64,000 nucleotides of DNA from a virus: IMG/VR virus record IMGVR_UViG_3300026136_000008. The stretch is one strand, 5' to 3'. The position numbers and the translations under genes were made by a program. The notes beneath the pieces were generated by a model. The model searched no databases and was not told where the DNA came from. It saw only the letters and a list, made by a program, of their open reading frames with translations. How positions within the stretch are numbered: position 1 is the stretch's first letter; each line of letters begins with the position of its first letter. Positions 24,775 to 32,613 of this stretch are shown here, in pieces.

Positions 24775-25319
24775 CTTTTATTACTGTCAGAACCTTCAAT
24801 AAAATTTGTCATGTATACATGTTCTAGTTGTTGTATTAAAGCCACATTAACATATGATATAGGAATATACTTACTTACAGAAATAGAATCAATATCAATT
24901 AACCTGAGAGTTTCATTTTTAAAATCCCAAATTATATTATCTGGATTAGGATCACCATACCATATAAATTTATTCTCCATAAATTTTACTTCTTTTCTTG
25001 CTACATCATATAATTTTTCAAATATACGGTCCATAGCTATTTTTATTTTAATGATATCATTGTGATATAATTTACCACCATTTTTTAAATACTGATTAAT
25101 TGTCATTCCATTTACATATTCGTATGTAAACCCATCATCATTAATTTCATGTATCTTTGGAAAAAAATCTAAATTATAACGTTCTTGAAGTATTTTTACT
25201 GAATGTATTATTCGTTTTTTTCTATGCCACAGTCTAGGTTTTTTATGTACTACTCCATCAACTAATGTCACTACACTAGACATTCCATCAAAATGGTTTA
25301 GATTAGACTCCTGCTTCAA
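24771..25319 (-). CDS. Protein-kinase-like (APH/RIO fold) protein
   Basis: YEYVNG, YGDPNPDNII catalytic loop, LIDID. Confidence 0.65.
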   Translation of the reverse strand: MKQESNLNHFDGMSSVVTLVDGVVHKKPRLWHRKKRIIHSVKILQERYNLDFFPKIHEINDDGFTYEYVNGMTINQYLKNGGKLYHNDIIKIKIAMDRIFEKLYDVARKEVKFMENKFIWYGDPNPDNIIWDFKNETLRLIDIDSISVSKYIPISYVNVALIQQLEHVYMTNFIEGSDSNKR

Positions 25320-25749
25320 AACTTCTCCATTTTATAATGTTACCAATATTCTGATGTCTCCAACGTATGGTAGACATAATCTCTTCAAGAGTTTCAACTA
25401 AAATCTTTTCTACTTCTAATAATGCTTGTGATCTTTGGATATCAGTATCTGCATCATAATAATAATTCATATCACCTTTTAGTGGTTTATTTAATCCGCC
25501 AAATGGATCGTACTCCCACTTAAATGCATCTATTTGTTCTTTAGACAATTTGCCGTTATAGTAAAGCCACTTATCTTTAAGTAATGTCTTATACTCTAAC
25601 TCACGTTTTTTACGTGTCATCTTCGCAATGGTAAGTAATTCTAAATACTTACTATGGATACGTGCCATCCTAATAGTAGTATCATCTAATTTTAATTCAT
25701 CTATCTGGCCATCTTTCTGCCACATTTGTAGTACTTCAGTTGTAGTCAT
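25303..25749 (-). CDS. uvsY: Recombination mediator UvsY
   Basis: MWQKDGQID..., IHSKYL, KWLYYNGK, NIIKWRSFEAG. Confidence 0.9.
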   Translation of the reverse strand: MTTTEVLQMWQKDGQIDELKLDDTTIRMARIHSKYLELLTIAKMTRKKRELEYKTLLKDKWLYYNGKLSKEQIDAFKWEYDPFGGLNKPLKGDMNYYYDADTDIQRSQALLEVEKILVETLEEIMSTIRWRHQNIGNIIKWRSFEAGV

Positions 25750-25778: not shown

Positions 25779-25807
25779 ATTATATCATAATATAGTGTCA
25801 ATGTACA
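25779..25807 (-). promoter_or_regulatory. sigma70-like promoter TGTACA-N17-TATAAT (uvsY)
   Basis: TATGTACATTGACACTATATTATGATATAAT. Confidence 0.7.
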
Positions 25808-27035
25808 TAGCCTTATATGTTTTTGGTAGCATTGTTTCTACTGATTGCTCTCGCCATTCATCTAATAATTCAGTTGTTCTATAATAGATTCTTTTATCAT
25901 CCTGTTTTGGCTCAGAATGATTATTTAAATATTCAAGAAAAGCTTCTGACATTTCAATAATTTCATCTGTACCATATCTAAAAAACATATTATCTATAAA
26001 TTCTTGAATATCTTTTTTTAATTTGTGTTTATTTTCTTCAGGGAGATTTCCTATTTGGTATTCAGACGGACCATATATATAATTTGTTTTAACCGTTCCG
26101 CATAAATGTGCTTTTTCGCCCACTATTTCATTAATAGTCTCTAACCACCATTCAGCGGTTTCTACAAAATAATTTGCATTCATTAACGACCATGTTGGTG
26201 CCCATGAAACTTGTATATTGCTTATATTTTCCTTCATAAACTGAAGCCATGTTCTAGCAGATTTTTCTACTGTATCCCACTTAGAATTATGTCTCGTATA
26301 TTCTTGTACCGAACCTGTGCCATCTATACTCATGAATATTTGGCAATGTTTAAATTTTTTTAATAAATCTAAGTGTCTCTTTTTAGGAACCCAACTTGCA
26401 TTAGTAAATATAAACATTCTAACATTTGTAGGATCAAATCTATTTGCAAATTTAAACCAATCCGGATGTAGCATTGGTTCTCCGCCAGTAATTTTGAGAT
26501 ATTCTAAATCTTTAAAATCATCATCTTCCCATTCTCTTTCAATATTCAATCTTTTCTTTGTGACACTAACAGCTAATCCTTCATGTACATATTTCTCTAA
26601 TCTTTTATTATCATCTAACCATGAATGAGATAAATCACTATCACAAGTTCTACATGCTAAATTACAATAATTACCAAAGGTTATTTCAACAAAATTTAAT
26701 TTTGGATTTACAATATCCGGCTCTGTCATCCAATCATTTCCATACCATGACTGAAGTTCTTTTGTGCGCATACTATCATATCCATTTTTTTCTGCGTAAT
26801 AACAAGTGGCACACCCTGCAACTTCCTCACCCTTTTTCATCTTTAGTTGTATATCTTTTATATTAGGATGCTGTAGATAATCTGATAATTTATCAAACTC
26901 GTTTATATTTGGAAGTTCCCACCCTTCAGGCATTTTACTCTTATTAAACCCGCAACACACTTGAGCTTTATTTGTTGGGTGAATATATATGTGGTTAAAA
27001 GGTAATGGACAAAATGTTTTAGAAATAGTTTTCAT
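25785..27035 (-). CDS. Radical SAM protein with N-terminal twitch/SPASM-like Cys cluster
   Basis: CNLACRTC, TGGEP, FTN, SIDG; N-terminal CPLPF..CC..CATC. Confidence 0.92.
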   Translation of the reverse strand: MKTISKTFCPLPFNHIYIHPTNKAQVCCGFNKSKMPEGWELPNINEFDKLSDYLQHPNIKDIQLKMKKGEEVAGCATCYYAEKNGYDSMRTKELQSWYGNDWMTEPDIVNPKLNFVEITFGNYCNLACRTCDSDLSHSWLDDNKRLEKYVHEGLAVSVTKKRLNIEREWEDDDFKDLEYLKITGGEPMLHPDWFKFANRFDPTNVRMFIFTNASWVPKKRHLDLLKKFKHCQIFMSIDGTGSVQEYTRHNSKWDTVEKSARTWLQFMKENISNIQVSWAPTWSLMNANYFVETAEWWLETINEIVGEKAHLCGTVKTNYIYGPSEYQIGNLPEENKHKLKKDIQEFIDNMFFRYGTDEIIEMSEAFLEYLNNHSEPKQDDKRIYYRTTELLDEWREQSVETMLPKTYKAMYIDTIL

Positions 27036-27819
27036 CTAGCATTCCTCTATCTAGTAAACGCTGTTTAATTCTGTCGCGTGTCATCATCTCCATCCATTGG
27101 TGATCTTCTATGATAGGTAACTCGTGTTTAATTTGTAACATCTTATCAAATGGTATATTCGTAGAATCTTCTTCTGTTCTTGATAGAGGCAAAGTTGATC
27201 CATCACCAAATACATATGGTTGTTGATTTCTAAAAACACCTATTCCTGTTTCTTTTTTAAGAATAAAAAATTCTCTCTTTAATGCTAGAATATCAAACAT
27301 TACTCTCCATGTTGTACCGCATCTTGGTCTTAATTTATTATCAGGTAAAGGATAAATTGCATGATCTTTTGTAGGAGGAAGCAAGTCATGTATGAATATC
27401 ATACCGCCTTTTCTTAAAAACATTAATGAATTTGAGAAATCTCTTAATACTTGTTTATGCTCGTGATCGCCATCAATAAATATAACATCGAATTTTTCTA
27501 AATTAATTTTAAAAAAATCATCTGAAGTCATACGAAGTGTACCACCAGATTTTGGATCTACACCAACTTTATGCTCTGCTTTAACGTTATCAAAACACTC
27601 ATTATATGCACATCCTATTTCTAAATACGATTTAAATTTATATTGGCTAAGTGCAAAGTTAATTAATTTTACTCTTGATGGTATCATTGTTTTAATATGT
27701 TCTTTATATTCATCATCACCTTCTTGTTTTGCGAAAAAATCATTATTTTGTTTACGTTCCCAGTATGTTTGTGCATTATCTTCACACCATTTTATAAATT
27801 TATTTTTATTGACTATCAT
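27019..27819 (-). CDS. Class I SAM methyltransferase (Methyltransf_24-like)
   Basis: YLEIGC, FDVIFIDGDH, LRKGGMIFIHD. Confidence 0.88.
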   Translation of the reverse strand: MIVNKNKFIKWCEDNAQTYWERKQNNDFFAKQEGDDEYKEHIKTMIPSRVKLINFALSQYKFKSYLEIGCAYNECFDNVKAEHKVGVDPKSGGTLRMTSDDFFKINLEKFDVIFIDGDHEHKQVLRDFSNSLMFLRKGGMIFIHDLLPPTKDHAIYPLPDNKLRPRCGTTWRVMFDILALKREFFILKKETGIGVFRNQQPYVFGDGSTLPLSRTEEDSTNIPFDKMLQIKHELPIIEDHQWMEMMTRDRIKQRLLDRGMLDENYF

Positions 27820-29021
27820 TTAAAATAATCTTTCATACCGCCTTCTCTATATGTATCTAATGTTAAACAATGCAGACCTCCATCCCAAAAATTCCTATGT
27901 CTAAATCTGCAGTATACTGCTTCAACTCCATGTTGCTTCAATTTGTCATGTACTTCTTTTTGATAGTTTAAAGATAGACTTACATTTTCATTTACCGCAA
28001 GCATATTTACTTCGAACAATGTTTCTTCTGCTTTTCCAACCCATTCACTACACCATCTATCTATAAAGCTTACAAGATCTGGATTCTCTTTAGCTTCTGG
28101 ATGCCACCATCTTCCATTAGTTATTCCTTTTTCTTTTTTCCAATCTACATTATCTTCCCATTTCATATAATTAGGATGTTCTATTCTTAATACATCCCAT
28201 CCAGGCAACGTATCTTTAAAGTGGCCTTTTCCTAACCACGGACCACAAACAACTAAGCCTGGTTTTGGTAAATTCATTGAACCATCATTATGACCACCAA
28301 TTGCTGTATTTGCACCTTCATATTGCGGGTATCTATCTAATAAAAAATCTGCAAGATTAGACCAATCTTCTTGGTCAATAATAAGCCTATTACCTACACG
28401 ATGTACGGCTGGTGCCCAGAATCCCCATGTGTGATTCCTCATCTTTTCGGTACGGCCAGTTGGTTTGAGAGGCCCTAAAGGTTCATTCCATTTTTCAGGA
28501 TCTAATAGCTTACCATTAGAATCTACTTTATATTTATTCTTACGATATTCATGTATAGCATCTTGAAATGGCAAATCAAGTACTGCAGGATTAAATATTC
28601 CACCGTTTACATCTACTTCATCATGCCACATATGATCACAATATACTATCTTATCACCAAGGGTTATAAAATCATCACGCGGTGTAAGACATGGTTTAGG
28701 TATACCTATGACACCTTCTCTTCTTTCATGTTCTACATATTCACCAAAACTTAAATAGTTACCACCTTTTGATCCGAGTGCACTAACACGATTAGGAGGC
28801 ATGCGTACTACATCAACACCCATATCCTCTAATGTCTTTTGAATATTATCTAAATCTTGATGTGTTTCAAATAATATTTTTTGCATGAGATCACGAAGCT
28901 TATGATCACGTATATCTTCAAAAAACTCTGGTGTGAATACATTACCAAGTACAACTTGTTTTAATGGATCCCATCCATTATATGCATTTGCCTTATTTAC
29001 TTTATATTGATTCGAATCCAT
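27816..29021 (-). CDS. Amidinotransferase (glycine/inosamine amidinotransferase family)
   Basis: NAYNGWDPLKQVVLG, PRDD, GHNDG, GGLHCLTLD (Asp-His-Cys triad). Confidence 0.88.
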   Translation of the reverse strand: MDSNQYKVNKANAYNGWDPLKQVVLGNVFTPEFFEDIRDHKLRDLMQKILFETHQDLDNIQKTLEDMGVDVVRMPPNRVSALGSKGGNYLSFGEYVEHERREGVIGIPKPCLTPRDDFITLGDKIVYCDHMWHDEVDVNGGIFNPAVLDLPFQDAIHEYRKNKYKVDSNGKLLDPEKWNEPLGPLKPTGRTEKMRNHTWGFWAPAVHRVGNRLIIDQEDWSNLADFLLDRYPQYEGANTAIGGHNDGSMNLPKPGLVVCGPWLGKGHFKDTLPGWDVLRIEHPNYMKWEDNVDWKKEKGITNGRWWHPEAKENPDLVSFIDRWCSEWVGKAEETLFEVNMLAVNENVSLSLNYQKEVHDKLKQHGVEAVYCRFRHRNFWDGGLHCLTLDTYREGGMKDYFK

Positions 29022-29472
29022 CTATTGTCCACCTGTCATCTATCCATGCTACTGGATTCATTACCTCAAATCCATCTATTTTTTGTTTATACTCATCAGC
29101 TCCGCCGATATACAAGTATTTATAACCTAATTCTTTATATATTGCACACTCGTTACGTAAGCTCTTTATACCTAAATGTAATTTAGGATTAGCATAGTCC
29201 CAAGCAAATTGATAACACTCAGCGTTATGTTCATCAAATTCAGCTATCATACTAAATGCTACAAGTACATCTCCATCATAATATCCTATTACCGTATTCT
29301 CTTTAAACTCAATATCAAACAAAGGCATAACACTATTGAATTTGTGATAATTACAGTACTTGTAATATATTTCTCTTAGCTGATTAGGGTCTGGATTAAG
29401 TAGTATTTCATGCGAACCTATTTTTTTATACTTTGTTTTTTCTAAATTAATTCTTGCATAGGAGTAACTCAT
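29002..29472 (-). CDS. Arg/Leu-tRNA-protein transferase (ATE/Bpt) C-terminal-like GNAT
   Basis: GYYDGDVLVAFS..FAWDY..LHLGIKSL..E..LGYKYLYIG..YK; likely start MSYSY. Confidence 0.6.
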   Translation of the reverse strand: MSYSYARINLEKTKYKKIGSHEILLNPDPNQLREIYYKYCNYHKFNSVMPLFDIEFKENTVIGYYDGDVLVAFSMIAEFDEHNAECYQFAWDYANPKLHLGIKSLRNECAIYKELGYKYLYIGGADEYKQKIDGFEVMNPVAWIDDRWTIDGFESI

Positions 29473-29933
29473 CCCACAAATCTCCAAGACACAACATCAT
29501 TTAAATTTTCTACTGACCAGTTAGCATAGTATCCTCTGTCTTTAAGGATATTGCTAGCCTCATTAATTGCACTTAGTCTCTGTACTAGTACTAATATACA
29601 TTTACCAAAATTCATCTTCGCGCCATTAATAATTTCTTCATCATGCGGATGATCTTCTAATGCAACAATATCCATAGCCATTGCGTTATGATTAAATTCT
29701 GTTACAATATCAGATAACTCTTTTGGTGTATAATTTTTAGTGGGGGTATAGAGACATACTACTTGATAATCATCATTAAAATCTGTACTGTAATCCTCAA
29801 GAGACTTGCGGATGTCATTAGTTTTAACATAATTGATTAATGCGTTTCGTGCATATGGACATGGTACAGTGCCAAGTTTTTCGTTATGAACAGATACGAA
29901 TTTATCTATCCATTTTTCGATTGATTTTTGCAT
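29469..29933 (-). CDS. DUF1415-like protein
   Basis: WIDKFV...PCPYAR, DHP, LVQRLS. Confidence 0.5.
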   Translation of the reverse strand: MQKSIEKWIDKFVSVHNEKLGTVPCPYARNALINYVKTNDIRKSLEDYSTDFNDDYQVVCLYTPTKNYTPKELSDIVTEFNHNAMAMDIVALEDHPHDEEIINGAKMNFGKCILVLVQRLSAINEASNILKDRGYYANWSVENLNDVVSWRFVG

Positions 29934-29948
29934 AATATAAGTGCCTCA

Positions 29949-30401
29949 TTATAAAAATTGGTAATAGGAATATTTGAAATTAACAACAGCCGTAAGATAT
30001 TCTACATCGGTTGTGGTGATATCAAATGGTAGGGACGAAATCATTGTCGGGTAAGCGTCCACAAATTTGATTTGTTTTGTGACATTATTTGCTGAATTCA
30101 TAATAGTAAGCGTCAAGTCACGTGTAGCATTAGTTGAATGATTAGATTCAACATTACTCTTTATCCAATCAAAGATCTCTTTATAGTTTAAAAGATCTTC
30201 GTCAATTAGATATGATATCTCAAATGAACCAAATACTATTTTATCTGATGGTATTCCAGCGTCAATCTGTTTAAATGGTAAAGGAGCGCCGTCCGCAGAT
30301 ACATCCGGAAGGATCATTGTTTGAATCGTAAATTCTGCACCAGAATAGGTTTGACTATCTAATGTTAAAACGAACGATGATGGATTTAAAAAGTTTGGCA
30401 T
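29949..30401 (-). CDS. gp3: Tail tube terminator/completion protein
   Basis: NFLNPSSFVL, LIDEDLLNYKEIFDW, FVDAYPT; synteny after gp23. Confidence 0.82.
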   Translation of the reverse strand: MPNFLNPSSFVLTLDSQTYSGAEFTIQTMILPDVSADGAPLPFKQIDAGIPSDKIVFGSFEISYLIDEDLLNYKEIFDWIKSNVESNHSTNATRDLTLTIMNSANNVTKQIKFVDAYPTMISSLPFDITTTDVEYLTAVVNFKYSYYQFL

Positions 30402-30402
30402 A

Positions 30403-31239
30403 CTATATATTTATAAGGTTCCTATACTCTGTTATTAATTGTTTTTTATTTGGTAATGGATCTTCTTGTATTGCTATTAATAATTTATCGTATTCTTCTT
30501 CATCACCTTCTAATAACTTTCCTATATCTAAATACAGTACTAAGTCTCCTCCTGGCACACCGTATGGTTTAATTTTATCTAAATATGCTGACCATGTTTC
30601 CCACTTCTCTGCCCAATTGTTTCTAGTTAAAGTGTGATTTTTCGGATGCATAAAAGGTGCATTTTTATTATAGTCTAAATATCTCATCCACCTATCTAAA
30701 AGATTATCAAATAATGTACTACGGATAACAGGAAGTATTACTTTTTTAGGATTCATTACTCTCATAACATAATTATATTCGGCCTGATCAATCATAACTT
30801 CATTATAATGAAGTTCGTGATTAGGTAATACCTTTAGAAAGTCTTTTGTGGCATTTTCCCTTTTAGCCAAAACTTTTGGATCTCCAAAAGTAGCTCTACC
30901 CATTGGGGACATTCTTACTTCTATTGTTTCTTCATGATTATACCAATCAGAACCGTAACATCCTACATCTATGCCACCTTCTTTTACATTAATATCATAC
31001 TTAGGAAAACTGTCATGTTGATTGACAAAAAAAGTTAACCATGATCCACATTGCCCAGCCCTATATAAACACAGATAATATTCCATATTTTCACTATAAC
31101 CTTTAAATTTATCTAAATGGTGCTTACGAAACTCTAAATACTGATTTGCACGCAACTTATTTTTTGAGTCTGTATTATCGCGATAATACTTTAAGCTTTC
31201 AGTAGTATGGCCTTCAAATTTATAGTTTTGTTTTTCCAT
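30403..31239 (-). CDS. Hypothetical protein (possible sulfotransferase-like fold)
   Basis: LYRAGQCGSWLTFFVNQH; own late promoter at 31249-31256. Confidence 0.55.
   Translation of the reverse strand: MEKQNYKFEGHTTESLKYYRDNTDSKNKLRANQYLEFRKHHLDKFKGYSENMEYYLCLYRAGQCGSWLTFFVNQHDSFPKYDINVKEGGIDVGCYGSDWYNHEETIEVRMSPMGRATFGDPKVLAKRENATKDFLKVLPNHELHYNEVMIDQAEYNYVMRVMNPKKVILPVIRSTLFDNLLDRWMRYLDYNKNAPFMHPKNHTLTRNNWAEKWETWSAYLDKIKPYGVPGGDLVLYLDIGKLLEGDEEEYDKLLIAIQEDPLPNKKQLITEYRNLINI
30408..30415 (-). promoter_or_regulatory. T4 late promoter, 6 nt before gp3 ATG
   Basis: TATAAATA-TATAGT-ATG. Confidence 0.75.
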
Positions 31240-31258
31240 AATAAAATTTATTTATAAT

Positions 31259-31285
31259 AAAAAAAATCCCCCAATGAAGGGGGAT
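31259..31285 (-). terminator. Rho-independent terminator after gp23
   Basis: ATCCCCC-TTCATT-GGGGGAT followed by T run. Confidence 0.85.
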
Positions 31286-31305: not shown

Positions 31306-32613
31306 TTACAGGTTAGTAACCTTACGTTTTCTGTAGTATACGTTGTTACCAGCTCCAGCAGTAACGAACGGATTGTCCGCAATACCGTAACGAGTTTTGA
31401 ATCCGATTCTTGGTTGGAAATCATTCTCACCAATTGTCTTCATCATGCTTAATGGAACATACGGGCAGTAGAACATACCAGCGTCATATGGGTTTGCACC
31501 CTTATAACCAACTGTGAAGTAGTCTACAGCAGCATATGGATCAATGTAAACAGCAATGTTACCGTTTAAAGTACCAGCTCTAAGTGAACCAGTTACATCA
31601 GAATCCATTTGTTGAGCACCTAGTGCACCCATGCCAGTATCCATAACGCCAGCAGCATTTAGAGCCGCAGCAACGTTGTTAGATACCATTACCCAGTTAC
31701 CCTTACCGCGACGAGTGTCAACAGCAATTTTGTTAGCTTCGTGCTCAATTGCTTGAACAAGAGCTTTGTAACGCTCAATTGACCAACGAGCACCACCGTT
31801 ATCAGTAGCGTTAGTTGCATTCCATGTACCAGCAGATGCACCACGAGTAGATGTCTTAGAATTAACGTTTACTAAACGGATAATCTCACGATTCATTTCA
31901 GCCAAGATTTCAGTTGAAAGGATGTTCGCAAGCTCTGTCTCAGCAGAAAGACCGTGAATAGCTTTAAGGTCTTGTGCTAATTCAGTTGTGTACTCAGCTT
32001 TAAGAGCACGAGACTTTGCAGTCACAGTAGTCTTATCGATTGAGAACGCCATCTCAGGGATAGCAGGTGAACCTGATGTACCTTGAGCTTCAGCAGTTGC
32101 CAAAGTATTACCACTACCAGGTGTGTAGTCATCAACTGTATCATCATCGTCAGAAGCAGCAGGTGCGCCACTAACAGTAGATGTATCACCAGCAAACGGA
32201 TCGTCAGACTTTAATTCTGAACCACTGTCTGCACCAGAGAATGCAGTATCTGCTTCGTTAAATAACGCTTCAGTACCACCTTGAGTTGAATAACGTGATT
32301 TCATTGCAAAGATTAGGCCAGTTGGTCCAGTCATTGGCTGTACGCCAACTAGATCAAATGCTAACATTGCAGGAGTTGCACGTCTAACTAGTGAGATAAG
32401 AACTGGATCCCAGTTATCAACACCCGAGCCGTTACTCATATTAGCTGCAGCAGCCTCAGTTAACTGACGCTCCTCCATAAAGGCTTTTTCTTGGTTCTCA
32501 AGAACAACAGCAGTTACCGAGCGCTTGTGAGCGTCTGCGATAGTGCCAGCATCTTTCGAATTAAGAACAGGAGCCCATTTTTCCTGTAATTGAACTTGAT
32601 TAATAGCTTCCAT
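31306..32613 (-). CDS. gp23: Major capsid protein
   Basis: GVQPMTGPTGLIFAM, KSRALKAEYT.ELAQDLKAIHG, FYCPYVPL, FQPRIGFKTRYG. Confidence 0.99.
   Translation of the reverse strand: MEAINQVQLQEKWAPVLNSKDAGTIADAHKRSVTAVVLENQEKAFMEERQLTEAAAANMSNGSGVDNWDPVLISLVRRATPAMLAFDLVGVQPMTGPTGLIFAMKSRYSTQGGTEALFNEADTAFSGADSGSELKSDDPFAGDTSTVSGAPAASDDDDTVDDYTPGSGNTLATAEAQGTSGSPAIPEMAFSIDKTTVTAKSRALKAEYTTELAQDLKAIHGLSAETELANILSTEILAEMNREIIRLVNVNSKTSTRGASAGTWNATNATDNGGARWSIERYKALVQAIEHEANKIAVDTRRGKGNWVMVSNNVAAALNAAGVMDTGMGALGAQQMDSDVTGSLRAGTLNGNIAVYIDPYAAVDYFTVGYKGANPYDAGMFYCPYVPLSMMKTIGENDFQPRIGFKTRYGIADNPFVTAGAGNNVYYRKRKVTNL

Follow-up and report, generated by a model that had tools for sequence, protein, structure and literature searches.

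A predicted virus-restricted tailoring module built around a p154/half-ATE gene pair in a marine T4-like phage

What is the function of a chain of overlapping enzyme genes that lies between gp23 and uvsY in a marine T4-like phage? This question is raised by a 64,000-nucleotide stretch of viral DNA (IMG/VR record IMGVR_UViG_3300026136_000008; hereafter the window), in which a gp3-like tail gene is followed by the genes of a small protein (p154), a single-lobe protein of the ATE family (half-ATE), an amidinotransferase-fold enzyme (AmT), a methyltransferase (MT), and a radical SAM enzyme (rSAM). An earlier interpretation made from the letters alone (the sequence-only reading) had proposed that these five genes resemble a late guanidino/aminoacyl tailoring pathway, which might modify virion proteins, surface glycans, or DNA, make a guanidino metabolite, or serve in N-degron tagging of host proteins. 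The overlapping chain behind gp3 was confirmed gene by gene, with all five genes on the minus strand at the expected positions and their junctions read from the sequence. Our analysis points tentatively to a virus-specific, late-expressed tailoring module around an inseparable p154/half-ATE pair, in which AmT would amidinate and half-ATE would aminoacylate; we regard this reading as plausible, though still short of an even chance. The observations on which it builds are the identities of the genes, their linkage, their restriction to viruses, and the late-promoter motifs that precede them.

The linkage of the genes was analyzed in viral loci centred on AmT (the best 80 of 543 viral contigs encoding a relative) and on half-ATE (the best 80 of at least 591 viral contigs). 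Contigs from protein look-up were added, and the loci (numbered here with the prefix L) were scored with the window proteins and by all-against-all clustering. In raw locus counts, which ignore relatedness and are weakened as evidence to that extent, p154 adjoined half-ATE in 61 of the 62 loci having room for p154, and AmT accompanied the pair in 38 of the 61 half-ATE-centred loci (∼60%). The collinear p154-half-ATE-AmT trio was found in at least eight flanking contexts, down to ∼40% AmT identity. It occupied the gp3-uvsY slot, as in the window, and elsewhere was located beside ribonucleotide reductase and curli genes (L010), within an island of seven radical SAM genes with two AmT paralogues (L012), beside a full-length PutA gene (L014), and between the genes of phosphoribosyl pyrophosphate (PRPP) synthetase/MazG and RpiB (L040 and L056); three more contexts were provided by L021/L022, L051, and L052/L053. 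Because the arrangement recurs in dozens of divergent phage contigs, it is far beyond chance. In L010, a CsgF-CsgG-FecR-CHASE2 cyclase block was located directly downstream of the trio (L010:10613-15935).

The same co-occurrence data led us to reject the five genes as one fixed pathway. MT and rSAM were confined to a subset of gp3-uvsY slots and swapped between lineages, so they are better described as accessory and lineage-specific, and AmT was absent from many loci with p154, half-ATE, and a DUF6614 gene. The sequence-only reading had named independent shuffling of the genes across phages as the pattern that would speak against it; such shuffling was not seen for p154 and half-ATE, was largely not seen for AmT, and was seen for MT and rSAM. 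The rSAM proteins found at the same slot position in other lineages had 26–32% identity, yet they were still of the N_Twi_rSAM type. Exchange also reached into the module itself. L039 and L041 are close relatives of the source phage (gp3 81–97% identical across the pair; UvsY 100% and rSAM 89% identical in L039), yet in both of them AmT has diverged (53%). The genes around AmT in L039 were 84–100% identical to those of the window, MT was 60% identical, and an extra 322-residue gene lay between gp3 and p154. Judged by these identities, allele replacement has occurred inside the module in these relatives.

In many loci, although not in the window, a gene encoding a 110-residue DUF6614 protein was located between half-ATE and AmT (L010:7679-8011, L012:7679-8011, L014:7679-8011, and L099:3944-4261), with the sequence pattern MD.YTIYAD ... 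MKLGFRSMDLPEFRIDMEF. This protein was 67–95% identical across loci in which AmT was 31–52% identical to the window AmT and is therefore better conserved than the surrounding enzymes. Among more distant phages, many had p154, half-ATE, and DUF6614 only, for example adjoining a baseplate gene or a UvsW-like helicase gene.

The distribution of the module was strongly biased toward viruses. Half-ATE matched none of 50,697 cultured-phage records. Its one match in a search of 185,579 cellular species genomes was located on a 6-kb contig of a Bacteroidetes metagenome-assembled genome (MAG), and this contig also carries p154 and AmT. The closest cellular relatives of AmT were located on MAG contigs and shared at most 37% identity in the best aligned segment, and ordinary Streptomyces amidinotransferases shared 21–25%; by sequence comparison, AmT is a member of a virus-dominated clade. 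Since half-ATE and the AmT clade hardly occur in cellular genomes, we discarded the idea that phages had borrowed the cluster from a bacterial biosynthetic pathway, and the virus restriction of the module suggests a virus-specific use rather than a borrowed host pathway. In the literature searched, no description of the module or of a phage-encoded aminoacyl-tRNA-dependent transferase was found. Together with the lack of half-ATE in the cultured phages, this agrees with the earlier statement that the combination was not recognised from any described phage pathway. The parts belong to known enzyme superfamilies, and what is new is the single-lobe architecture of half-ATE, its proposed partnership with p154, and the viral restriction.

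In cells, aminoacyl-tRNA-dependent transferases serve in N-degron tagging, peptidoglycan bridges, lipid aminoacylation, and the synthesis of a few antibiotics. The start of the half-ATE gene was assigned by homologues to an ATG at 29472, whereas the list of open reading frames gave a TTG at 29487. The window protein scored 22.5 bits against PF04377 (E = 1.9e-4), slightly below the gathering score of 25; many of its homologues carry PF04377, and the family profile matched no structures in PDB other than ATE1 (E = 0.0035). The alignment of half-ATE with ATE1 spanned the FxWD, LG, E, YLG, and YK positions (motif QFAWDY..LG..EC..YLYLGG..YK), and the top Foldseek matches of its AlphaFold model (predicted local distance difference test, pLDDT, 89) were also ATE1. 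The profile, the homologues, and Foldseek thus agree on homology to the ATE_C domain, and the ATE/Bpt-like label of the sequence-only reading is upheld, with the window protein itself slightly under the gathering score.

The architecture of half-ATE was different from that of its relatives. Half-ATE has the GNAT lobe and the ATE_C motifs of ATE1 and Bpt, but it corresponds to the C-terminal lobe only (141–161 residues), adjoins p154, and is virus-restricted; the members of its family have 139–198 residues and one GNAT lobe, with no ATE_N match, and do not show the two-lobe ATE_N + ATE_C architecture. The best Z scores of the half-ATE model were obtained with the second GNAT lobes of MprF and FemX (13.7–14.3), followed by the second GNAT lobe of the tRNA-dependent enzymes Sba18/Sbb17 (12.2–12.4); ordinary GNATs and N-myristoyltransferases were merely 1–2 Z units lower. 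Although MprF (with the aminoacyl-phosphatidylglycerol synthases) and FemX rank first by fold, these enzymes and Sba18/Sbb17 have two lobes and no detectable sequence similarity to half-ATE. Sba18/Sbb17 are streptothrisamine peptide synthases, which aminoacylate an amino sugar of a guanidino natural product. Since all solved relatives have two GNAT lobes, half-ATE probably needs a partner. From its homology, half-ATE is predicted to be an aminoacyl-tRNA transferase acting on an amine.

The AmT profile matched SxtG (6e-13), AGAT (8e-12), and StrB1 (2e-10), with the N-terminal, central, and C-terminal segments covered. Foldseek comparison of the AmT model (pLDDT 81) gave E values of 2e-16 to 5e-14 for amidinotransferases versus 1e-9 for arginine deiminase, and the Z scores were 23.7–25.3 for amidinotransferases, ∼22 for arginine deiminases, and 17 for peptidyl-arginine deiminases. 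AmT therefore has the pentein fold, with SxtG, AGAT, StrB1, and HsvA as its nearest relatives, at 17–21% identity to solved amidinotransferases. No Pfam family, including Amidinotransf (PF02274), matched AmT at E ≤ 0.01, and no precomputed Pfam domain was present on the 120 AmT homologues listed. The amidinotransferase label was nevertheless borne out by the profile matches and a Z score of 25. Four residues, C385, H244, D246, and D116, were invariant in 37 sequences and correspond to C407, H303, D305, and D170 of AGAT, with D116 and D246 as the two guanidino-binding Asp residues. The claim of an intact Asp-His-Cys triad was only partly sustained: Cys385, His244, and the guanidino-binding Asp residues are in place, whereas Asp254 of the AGAT triad aligns with Trp202 of AmT. 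From its nearest relatives, AmT is predicted to transfer the amidino group of arginine to an amine. In addition to the full-length proteins, a shorter AmT relative of 298 residues is encoded by Synechococcus phage S-SCSM2R (L003, 213353–214246), where it adjoins KdsA/KdsB and 2-oxoglutarate (2OG)-Fe(II) oxygenases.

The assignment of p154 was less certain. The window protein alone scored 12.2 bits against DUF6875 (E = 0.19; cut-off 24.5) and was below the gathering score; in its family, 13 of 33 members matched DUF6875 (best 1.9e-5) and 11 of 33 matched DUF1415 (E ≤ 0.05), and the language-model neighbours of p154 agreed with a DUF6875/DUF1415 kinship. The earlier DUF1415-like label is thus weak for the window protein and better founded for the family. 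The homologues form 909 sequence clusters, and the family alignment showed an LEDHP motif and an invariant Cys25-Pro26 within the motif G-x-V-P-C-P-[FY]-A-[KR]. DUF6875 has lately been renamed cytochrome P422, a family of thiolate-ligated haem oxygenases with an RxGxVCP motif (bioRxiv 10.64898/2025.12.11.692455). p154 resembles the cytochrome P422 tryptophan oxygenases in size, in the N-terminal Gly-x-Val-(Pro)-Cys-Pro segment, and in the weak Pfam matches of its family; it differs in its sub-threshold score and the extra Pro of its motif, and none of the substrate-binding motifs published for the family was recognised in it. Kinship to P422/DUF6875 is plausible but not proven. The p154 profile had no matches in PDB, and identity of p154 with DUF6614 was ruled out by comparison. 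Solitary relatives of p154 were found in cultured cyanophages, among them Syn1 and S-RIM44, in some cases adjoining 2OG-Fe(II) oxygenases.

The source phage, a marine myovirus of the T4-like type, is divergent: gp23, the major capsid protein, had at most 55% identity to that of any cultured phage, with the best matches in S-SKS1, pelagiphage HTVC008M, and the Melnitz phages; the operon region had no blastn match in the 50,697 phage records, and no tRNA genes were found in the window. On the minus strand, the order was gp23, hairpin, p278, TATAAATA, gp3-like gene, p154, half-ATE, AmT, MT, rSAM, and uvsY (Table 1). A 15-nucleotide gap with GAGG precedes p154; the p154 stop and the half-ATE start share a common ATGA; half-ATE and AmT overlap by 20 nucleotides, AmT and MT by 4, and MT and rSAM by 17; and 35 nucleotides separate rSAM from uvsY. 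Read from these junctions, the chain resembles one late transcription unit beginning at gp3. The gp3-like protein matched phrog_45 (tail tube, E = 4e-27) and scored 26.4 bits against PF06841, slightly below the cut-off. The gp23-(p278)-gp3 order is conserved in the relatives, and there too the gp3-like gene is located between gp23 and uvsY. The protein thus has both the tail-tube homology and the position after gp23 of the T4 tail completion protein gp3.

Table 1. Features of the gp23-uvsY region in the window
Feature	Position	Strand	Remarks
gp23, major capsid gene	31306–32613	−	upstream of the slot
Terminator-like hairpin	31268–31284	−	after gp23
p278, 278 residues	30403–31239	−	upstream neighbour; own TATAAATA motif at 31249–31256
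T4-type late promoter motif TATAAATA	30408–30415	−	ends 6 nucleotides before the gp3-like start codon
gp3-like tail completion protein, 150 residues	29949–30401	−	first gene of the operon; phrog_45; gp23-uvsY position
p154, 154 residues	29469–29933	−	DUF1415/DUF6875-like; invariant Cys25-Pro26, LEDHP motif
half-ATE, 156 residues	29002–29472	−	single-lobe ATE_C-type GNAT protein; PF04377, profile, Foldseek
AmT, 401 residues	27816–29021	−	amidinotransferase-fold (pentein) enzyme; profile and model matches
MT, 266 residues	27019–27819	−	class I S-adenosylmethionine (SAM)-dependent methyltransferase, Methyltransf_24 (Pfam); accessory
rSAM, 416 residues	25785–27035	−	radical SAM enzyme with N-terminal twitch domain, NF033640 (NCBIfam); accessory
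UvsY recombination mediator	25303–25749	−	downstream boundary of the slot; PF11056, E = 3e-21

The motif TATAAATA is the T4 late-promoter consensus. It was located 13–14 nucleotides upstream of gp3 in every relative with the gp3 slot, and it preceded p154 itself when the trio was elsewhere or parted from gp3 (L019, L021/22, L039, L058, and L063). A scan for sigma-70 promoters gave a chance level of sites (42 versus 39 expected). From its placement, TATAAATA would be expected to act as a late promoter in the source phage, and the late expression proposed by the sequence-only reading is plausible. An internal copy of TATAAATA was also present within the half-ATE gene (window 29117–29124, minus strand), where it arises from conserved Gly-Tyr-Lys-Tyr codons, and the motif recurred within the p154-AmT stretch of many relatives at offsets of 371–821 from the p154 start. 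The internal copy may drive late transcription of AmT, or its presence may be incidental. The upstream neighbour p278 had no Pfam, PHROG, or NCBIfam match. It diverges fast, with 33–38% identity where gp3 is 72–83% identical, and it was present in most slot lineages with MT and rSAM and absent from the lineages without them; p278 might contribute another enzyme activity, or it might be what the accessory enzymes act on.

The two accessory genes were assigned with scores above the curated cut-offs, in agreement with their earlier labels: MT had 42.3 bits against Methyltransf_24 (PF13578; cut-off 26.3), with an IFIDGDH motif that aligns to PDB 6g7d, and rSAM had 269 bits against NF033640 N_Twi_rSAM (cut-off 170; residues 5–408), with CNLACRTC as its CxxxCxxC motif. 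Several observations tie the module to radical SAM chemistry more generally. A 572-residue protein, L250:266-1984 (P0449), combines an N_Twi_rSAM domain (164.7 bits, slightly below the cut-off) with a p154 domain at residues 400–558. L012 (ENA ERZ23491603 scaffold_80, 130 kb) contains seven radical SAM genes, of which four are full-length N_Twi_rSAM, and its island further holds p154, DUF6614, a nitroreductase gene, a half-ATE gene in the opposite orientation, and two AmT paralogues in tandem. When five large phage records with p154 and half-ATE (four of them with the collinear trio) were scored, four had 4–12 N_Twi_rSAM genes above the cut-off, and none of 14 control cellular genomes had any. 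Contigs of Bdellovibrio-type MAGs (L104, L102, and L105; Pseudobdellovibrionaceae/Bdellovibrio) have ∼4–7 radical SAM genes per contig and an AmT relative. A p154 relative was present in L104–L106 and a PP-loop ATPase-like gene in L104; the L104, L102, and L105 contigs may be truly bacterial or mis-binned phage. A second radical SAM gene follows the fusion gene of L250.

A comparable cluster occurs in cultured phages. The Campylobacter phages CP220/CPt10 are T4-like, as is the source phage, and CPT_0086 is an AmT homologue (hhalign probability 98%) that in CP220 lies amid five radical SAM genes, similar to L012 and the Bdellovibrio-type islands. Unlike the source phage, CP220 has neither half-ATE nor p154, and its cluster includes two glycosyltransferases and a PAP2 phosphatase. 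The presence of radical SAM genes and a "glycine amidinotransferase" in the CP220 cluster was noted by Timms et al. 2010 (PMC2853527). CPT_0085, which lies upstream of the CP220 amidinotransferase, was considered as a p154-like protein and rejected (hhalign probability 0.1%).

The tight overlapping operon behind TATAAATA, the persistent linkage, and the homology to ATE and amidinotransferases are the reasons for proposing a tailoring module, and the fusion protein, L012, the Bdellovibrio-type islands, the N_Twi_rSAM-rich records, and CP220 are the reasons for tying it to radical SAM chemistry. In the proposed mechanism, half-ATE would transfer the aminoacyl group of an aminoacyl-tRNA to a primary amine of an acceptor, with p154 as the obvious candidate for its partner, either as such or as a redox/cofactor subunit. 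AmT would form a Cys385 thiouronium intermediate from L-arginine and pass the amidino group to an amine either of this acceptor or of its precursor, with ornithine set free. In the source phage, the Methyltransf_24 MT and the N-twitch rSAM would act as optional finishing steps. For the acceptor, we favour a nonprotein amine, either a polyamine or an amino sugar that is part of the product of the radical SAM islands of the phage, with a protein or a DNA base as the other candidates. Such a pathway would yield a guanidino compound that is also aminoacylated, comparable with the products of the hsv/phevamine pathway and of the tRNA-dependent streptothricin-type peptide synthases. We infer the substrates, the order of the steps, the partnership of p154 with half-ATE, and any haem binding by p154 from these comparisons.

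The hsv operon of Pseudomonas syringae offers the nearest model. There, the amidinotransferase HsvA and the ATP-grasp ligases HsvB/HsvC make phevamine A on spermidine (PMC6187163). What the module would share with the hsv operon is an AGAT-type amidinotransferase alongside enzymes that join amino acids through amide bonds to one amine scaffold, and in structure few proteins match AmT better than HsvA. The amide-forming enzymes of hsv are of the ATP-grasp type, whereas the module is viral and has a P422/DUF1415-like protein and an ATE_C-type enzyme for which tRNA dependence is proposed. For tRNA-dependent aminoacylation of a nonprotein acceptor, MprF, FemX, and Sba18 are the nearest precedents.

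Several points weigh against this tailoring model. Many loci with p154, half-ATE, and DUF6614 have no detectable AmT, and the Bdellovibrio-type islands have AmT and p154 without half-ATE; because AmT-less and half-ATE-less loci exist, a target molecule common to the three enzymes is not required. The genes around the module vary from context to context and give no hint of the acceptor. The rSAM-p154 fusion is known from a single 3.4-kb contig, and the link between p154 and P422 consists of weak N-terminal matches, with a G-x-V-P-C-P motif that differs from the published RxGxVCP. In addition to the Trp at the position of the triad Asp, AmT has no conserved acid 45–55 residues before His244, and it could be a hydrolase because in fold comparison arginine deiminases fall little short of amidinotransferases (Z 22 versus 25).

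The first alternative is a protein-directed one, in which proteins of the virion or the host receive an amino acid from half-ATE at their N termini or on side-chain amines, as an N-degron-like tag or a structural mark, and AmT converts lysine-type amines of these proteins to homoarginine or deiminates their arginine. ATE1 and Bpt, the closest family by sequence, act on protein N termini; the operon lies behind late-type promoter motifs together with tail and head genes; the S-SCSM2R relative of AmT was detected in the purified virion proteome (PMC12801897); and peptidyl-arginine deiminases have the AmT fold. However, half-ATE lacks the ATE_N lobe common to all protein arginyltransferases, and since it corresponds to the C-terminal lobe only, classical N-degron tagging is less likely. 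By fold Z score, it is as near to MprF, FemX, and Sba18, which are directed at lipids or small molecules, as to any other match. AmT is nearest to small-molecule amidinotransferases, and no candidate substrate gene accompanies the module, except for the optional DUF6614. On balance, we consider protein tagging unlikely.

A second alternative, which we hold to be very unlikely, is that the genes finish a DNA hypermodification, in which an amine-bearing base, made by other genes of the genome, is amidinated and/or aminoacylated after replication and then altered by MT and rSAM. The finishing steps of phage thymidine hypermodification typically involve GNATs, methyltransferases, and radical SAM enzymes, and a ThyX gene adjoins one AmT context. 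However, in most contexts the trio was not beside a nucleotide-modifying gene, and we know of no tRNA-dependent DNA modification. A search for the thymidylate-synthase family in three trio-bearing contig records, two of which are fragments, matched one and was therefore nondiscriminating. The remaining alternative, an auxiliary arginine/nitrogen metabolism in which an amidinotransferase or deiminase-like activity of AmT frees ornithine or ammonia from arginine for the metabolism of the host and the neighbours are unrelated morons in a hypervariable slot, fits the variability of the gp3-uvsY slot (presence of MT/rSAM, swapped alleles, and the extra gene of L039) and the PutA neighbour, but this neighbour occurs in just one of at least eight contexts, the trio is collinear and translationally coupled across many unrelated contexts, unlike morons, and the AmT clade and half-ATE are nearly absent from cells, unlike typical auxiliary metabolic genes, so that we give it the least credence.

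Returning to the tailoring module, a bolder version of it would be that p154 and half-ATE form a virus-only two-component aminoacyl-tRNA transferase, possibly haem/thiolate-dependent, whose target is a glycan or protein of the virion or a DNA base that bears an amine, with AmT then guanidinylating the same target. We consider this version improbable. If true, it would add a new class, dependent on tRNA, to the known modifications of virions or genomes, and this class would be connected with the large radical SAM islands of marine T4-like phages. Apart from this version, the half-ATE and p154 pair, present in at least 590 uncultured phage contigs, is very common in marine "viral dark matter", often together with the virus-dominated AmT clade and in genomes unusually rich in N-twitch rSAM genes. 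Identification of the product would give a function to a common marine gene pair and would test whether charged tRNA has chemical uses beyond translation in phages. It would possibly also explain the radical SAM/amidinotransferase clusters, which have been unexplained in T4-like phages since 2010.

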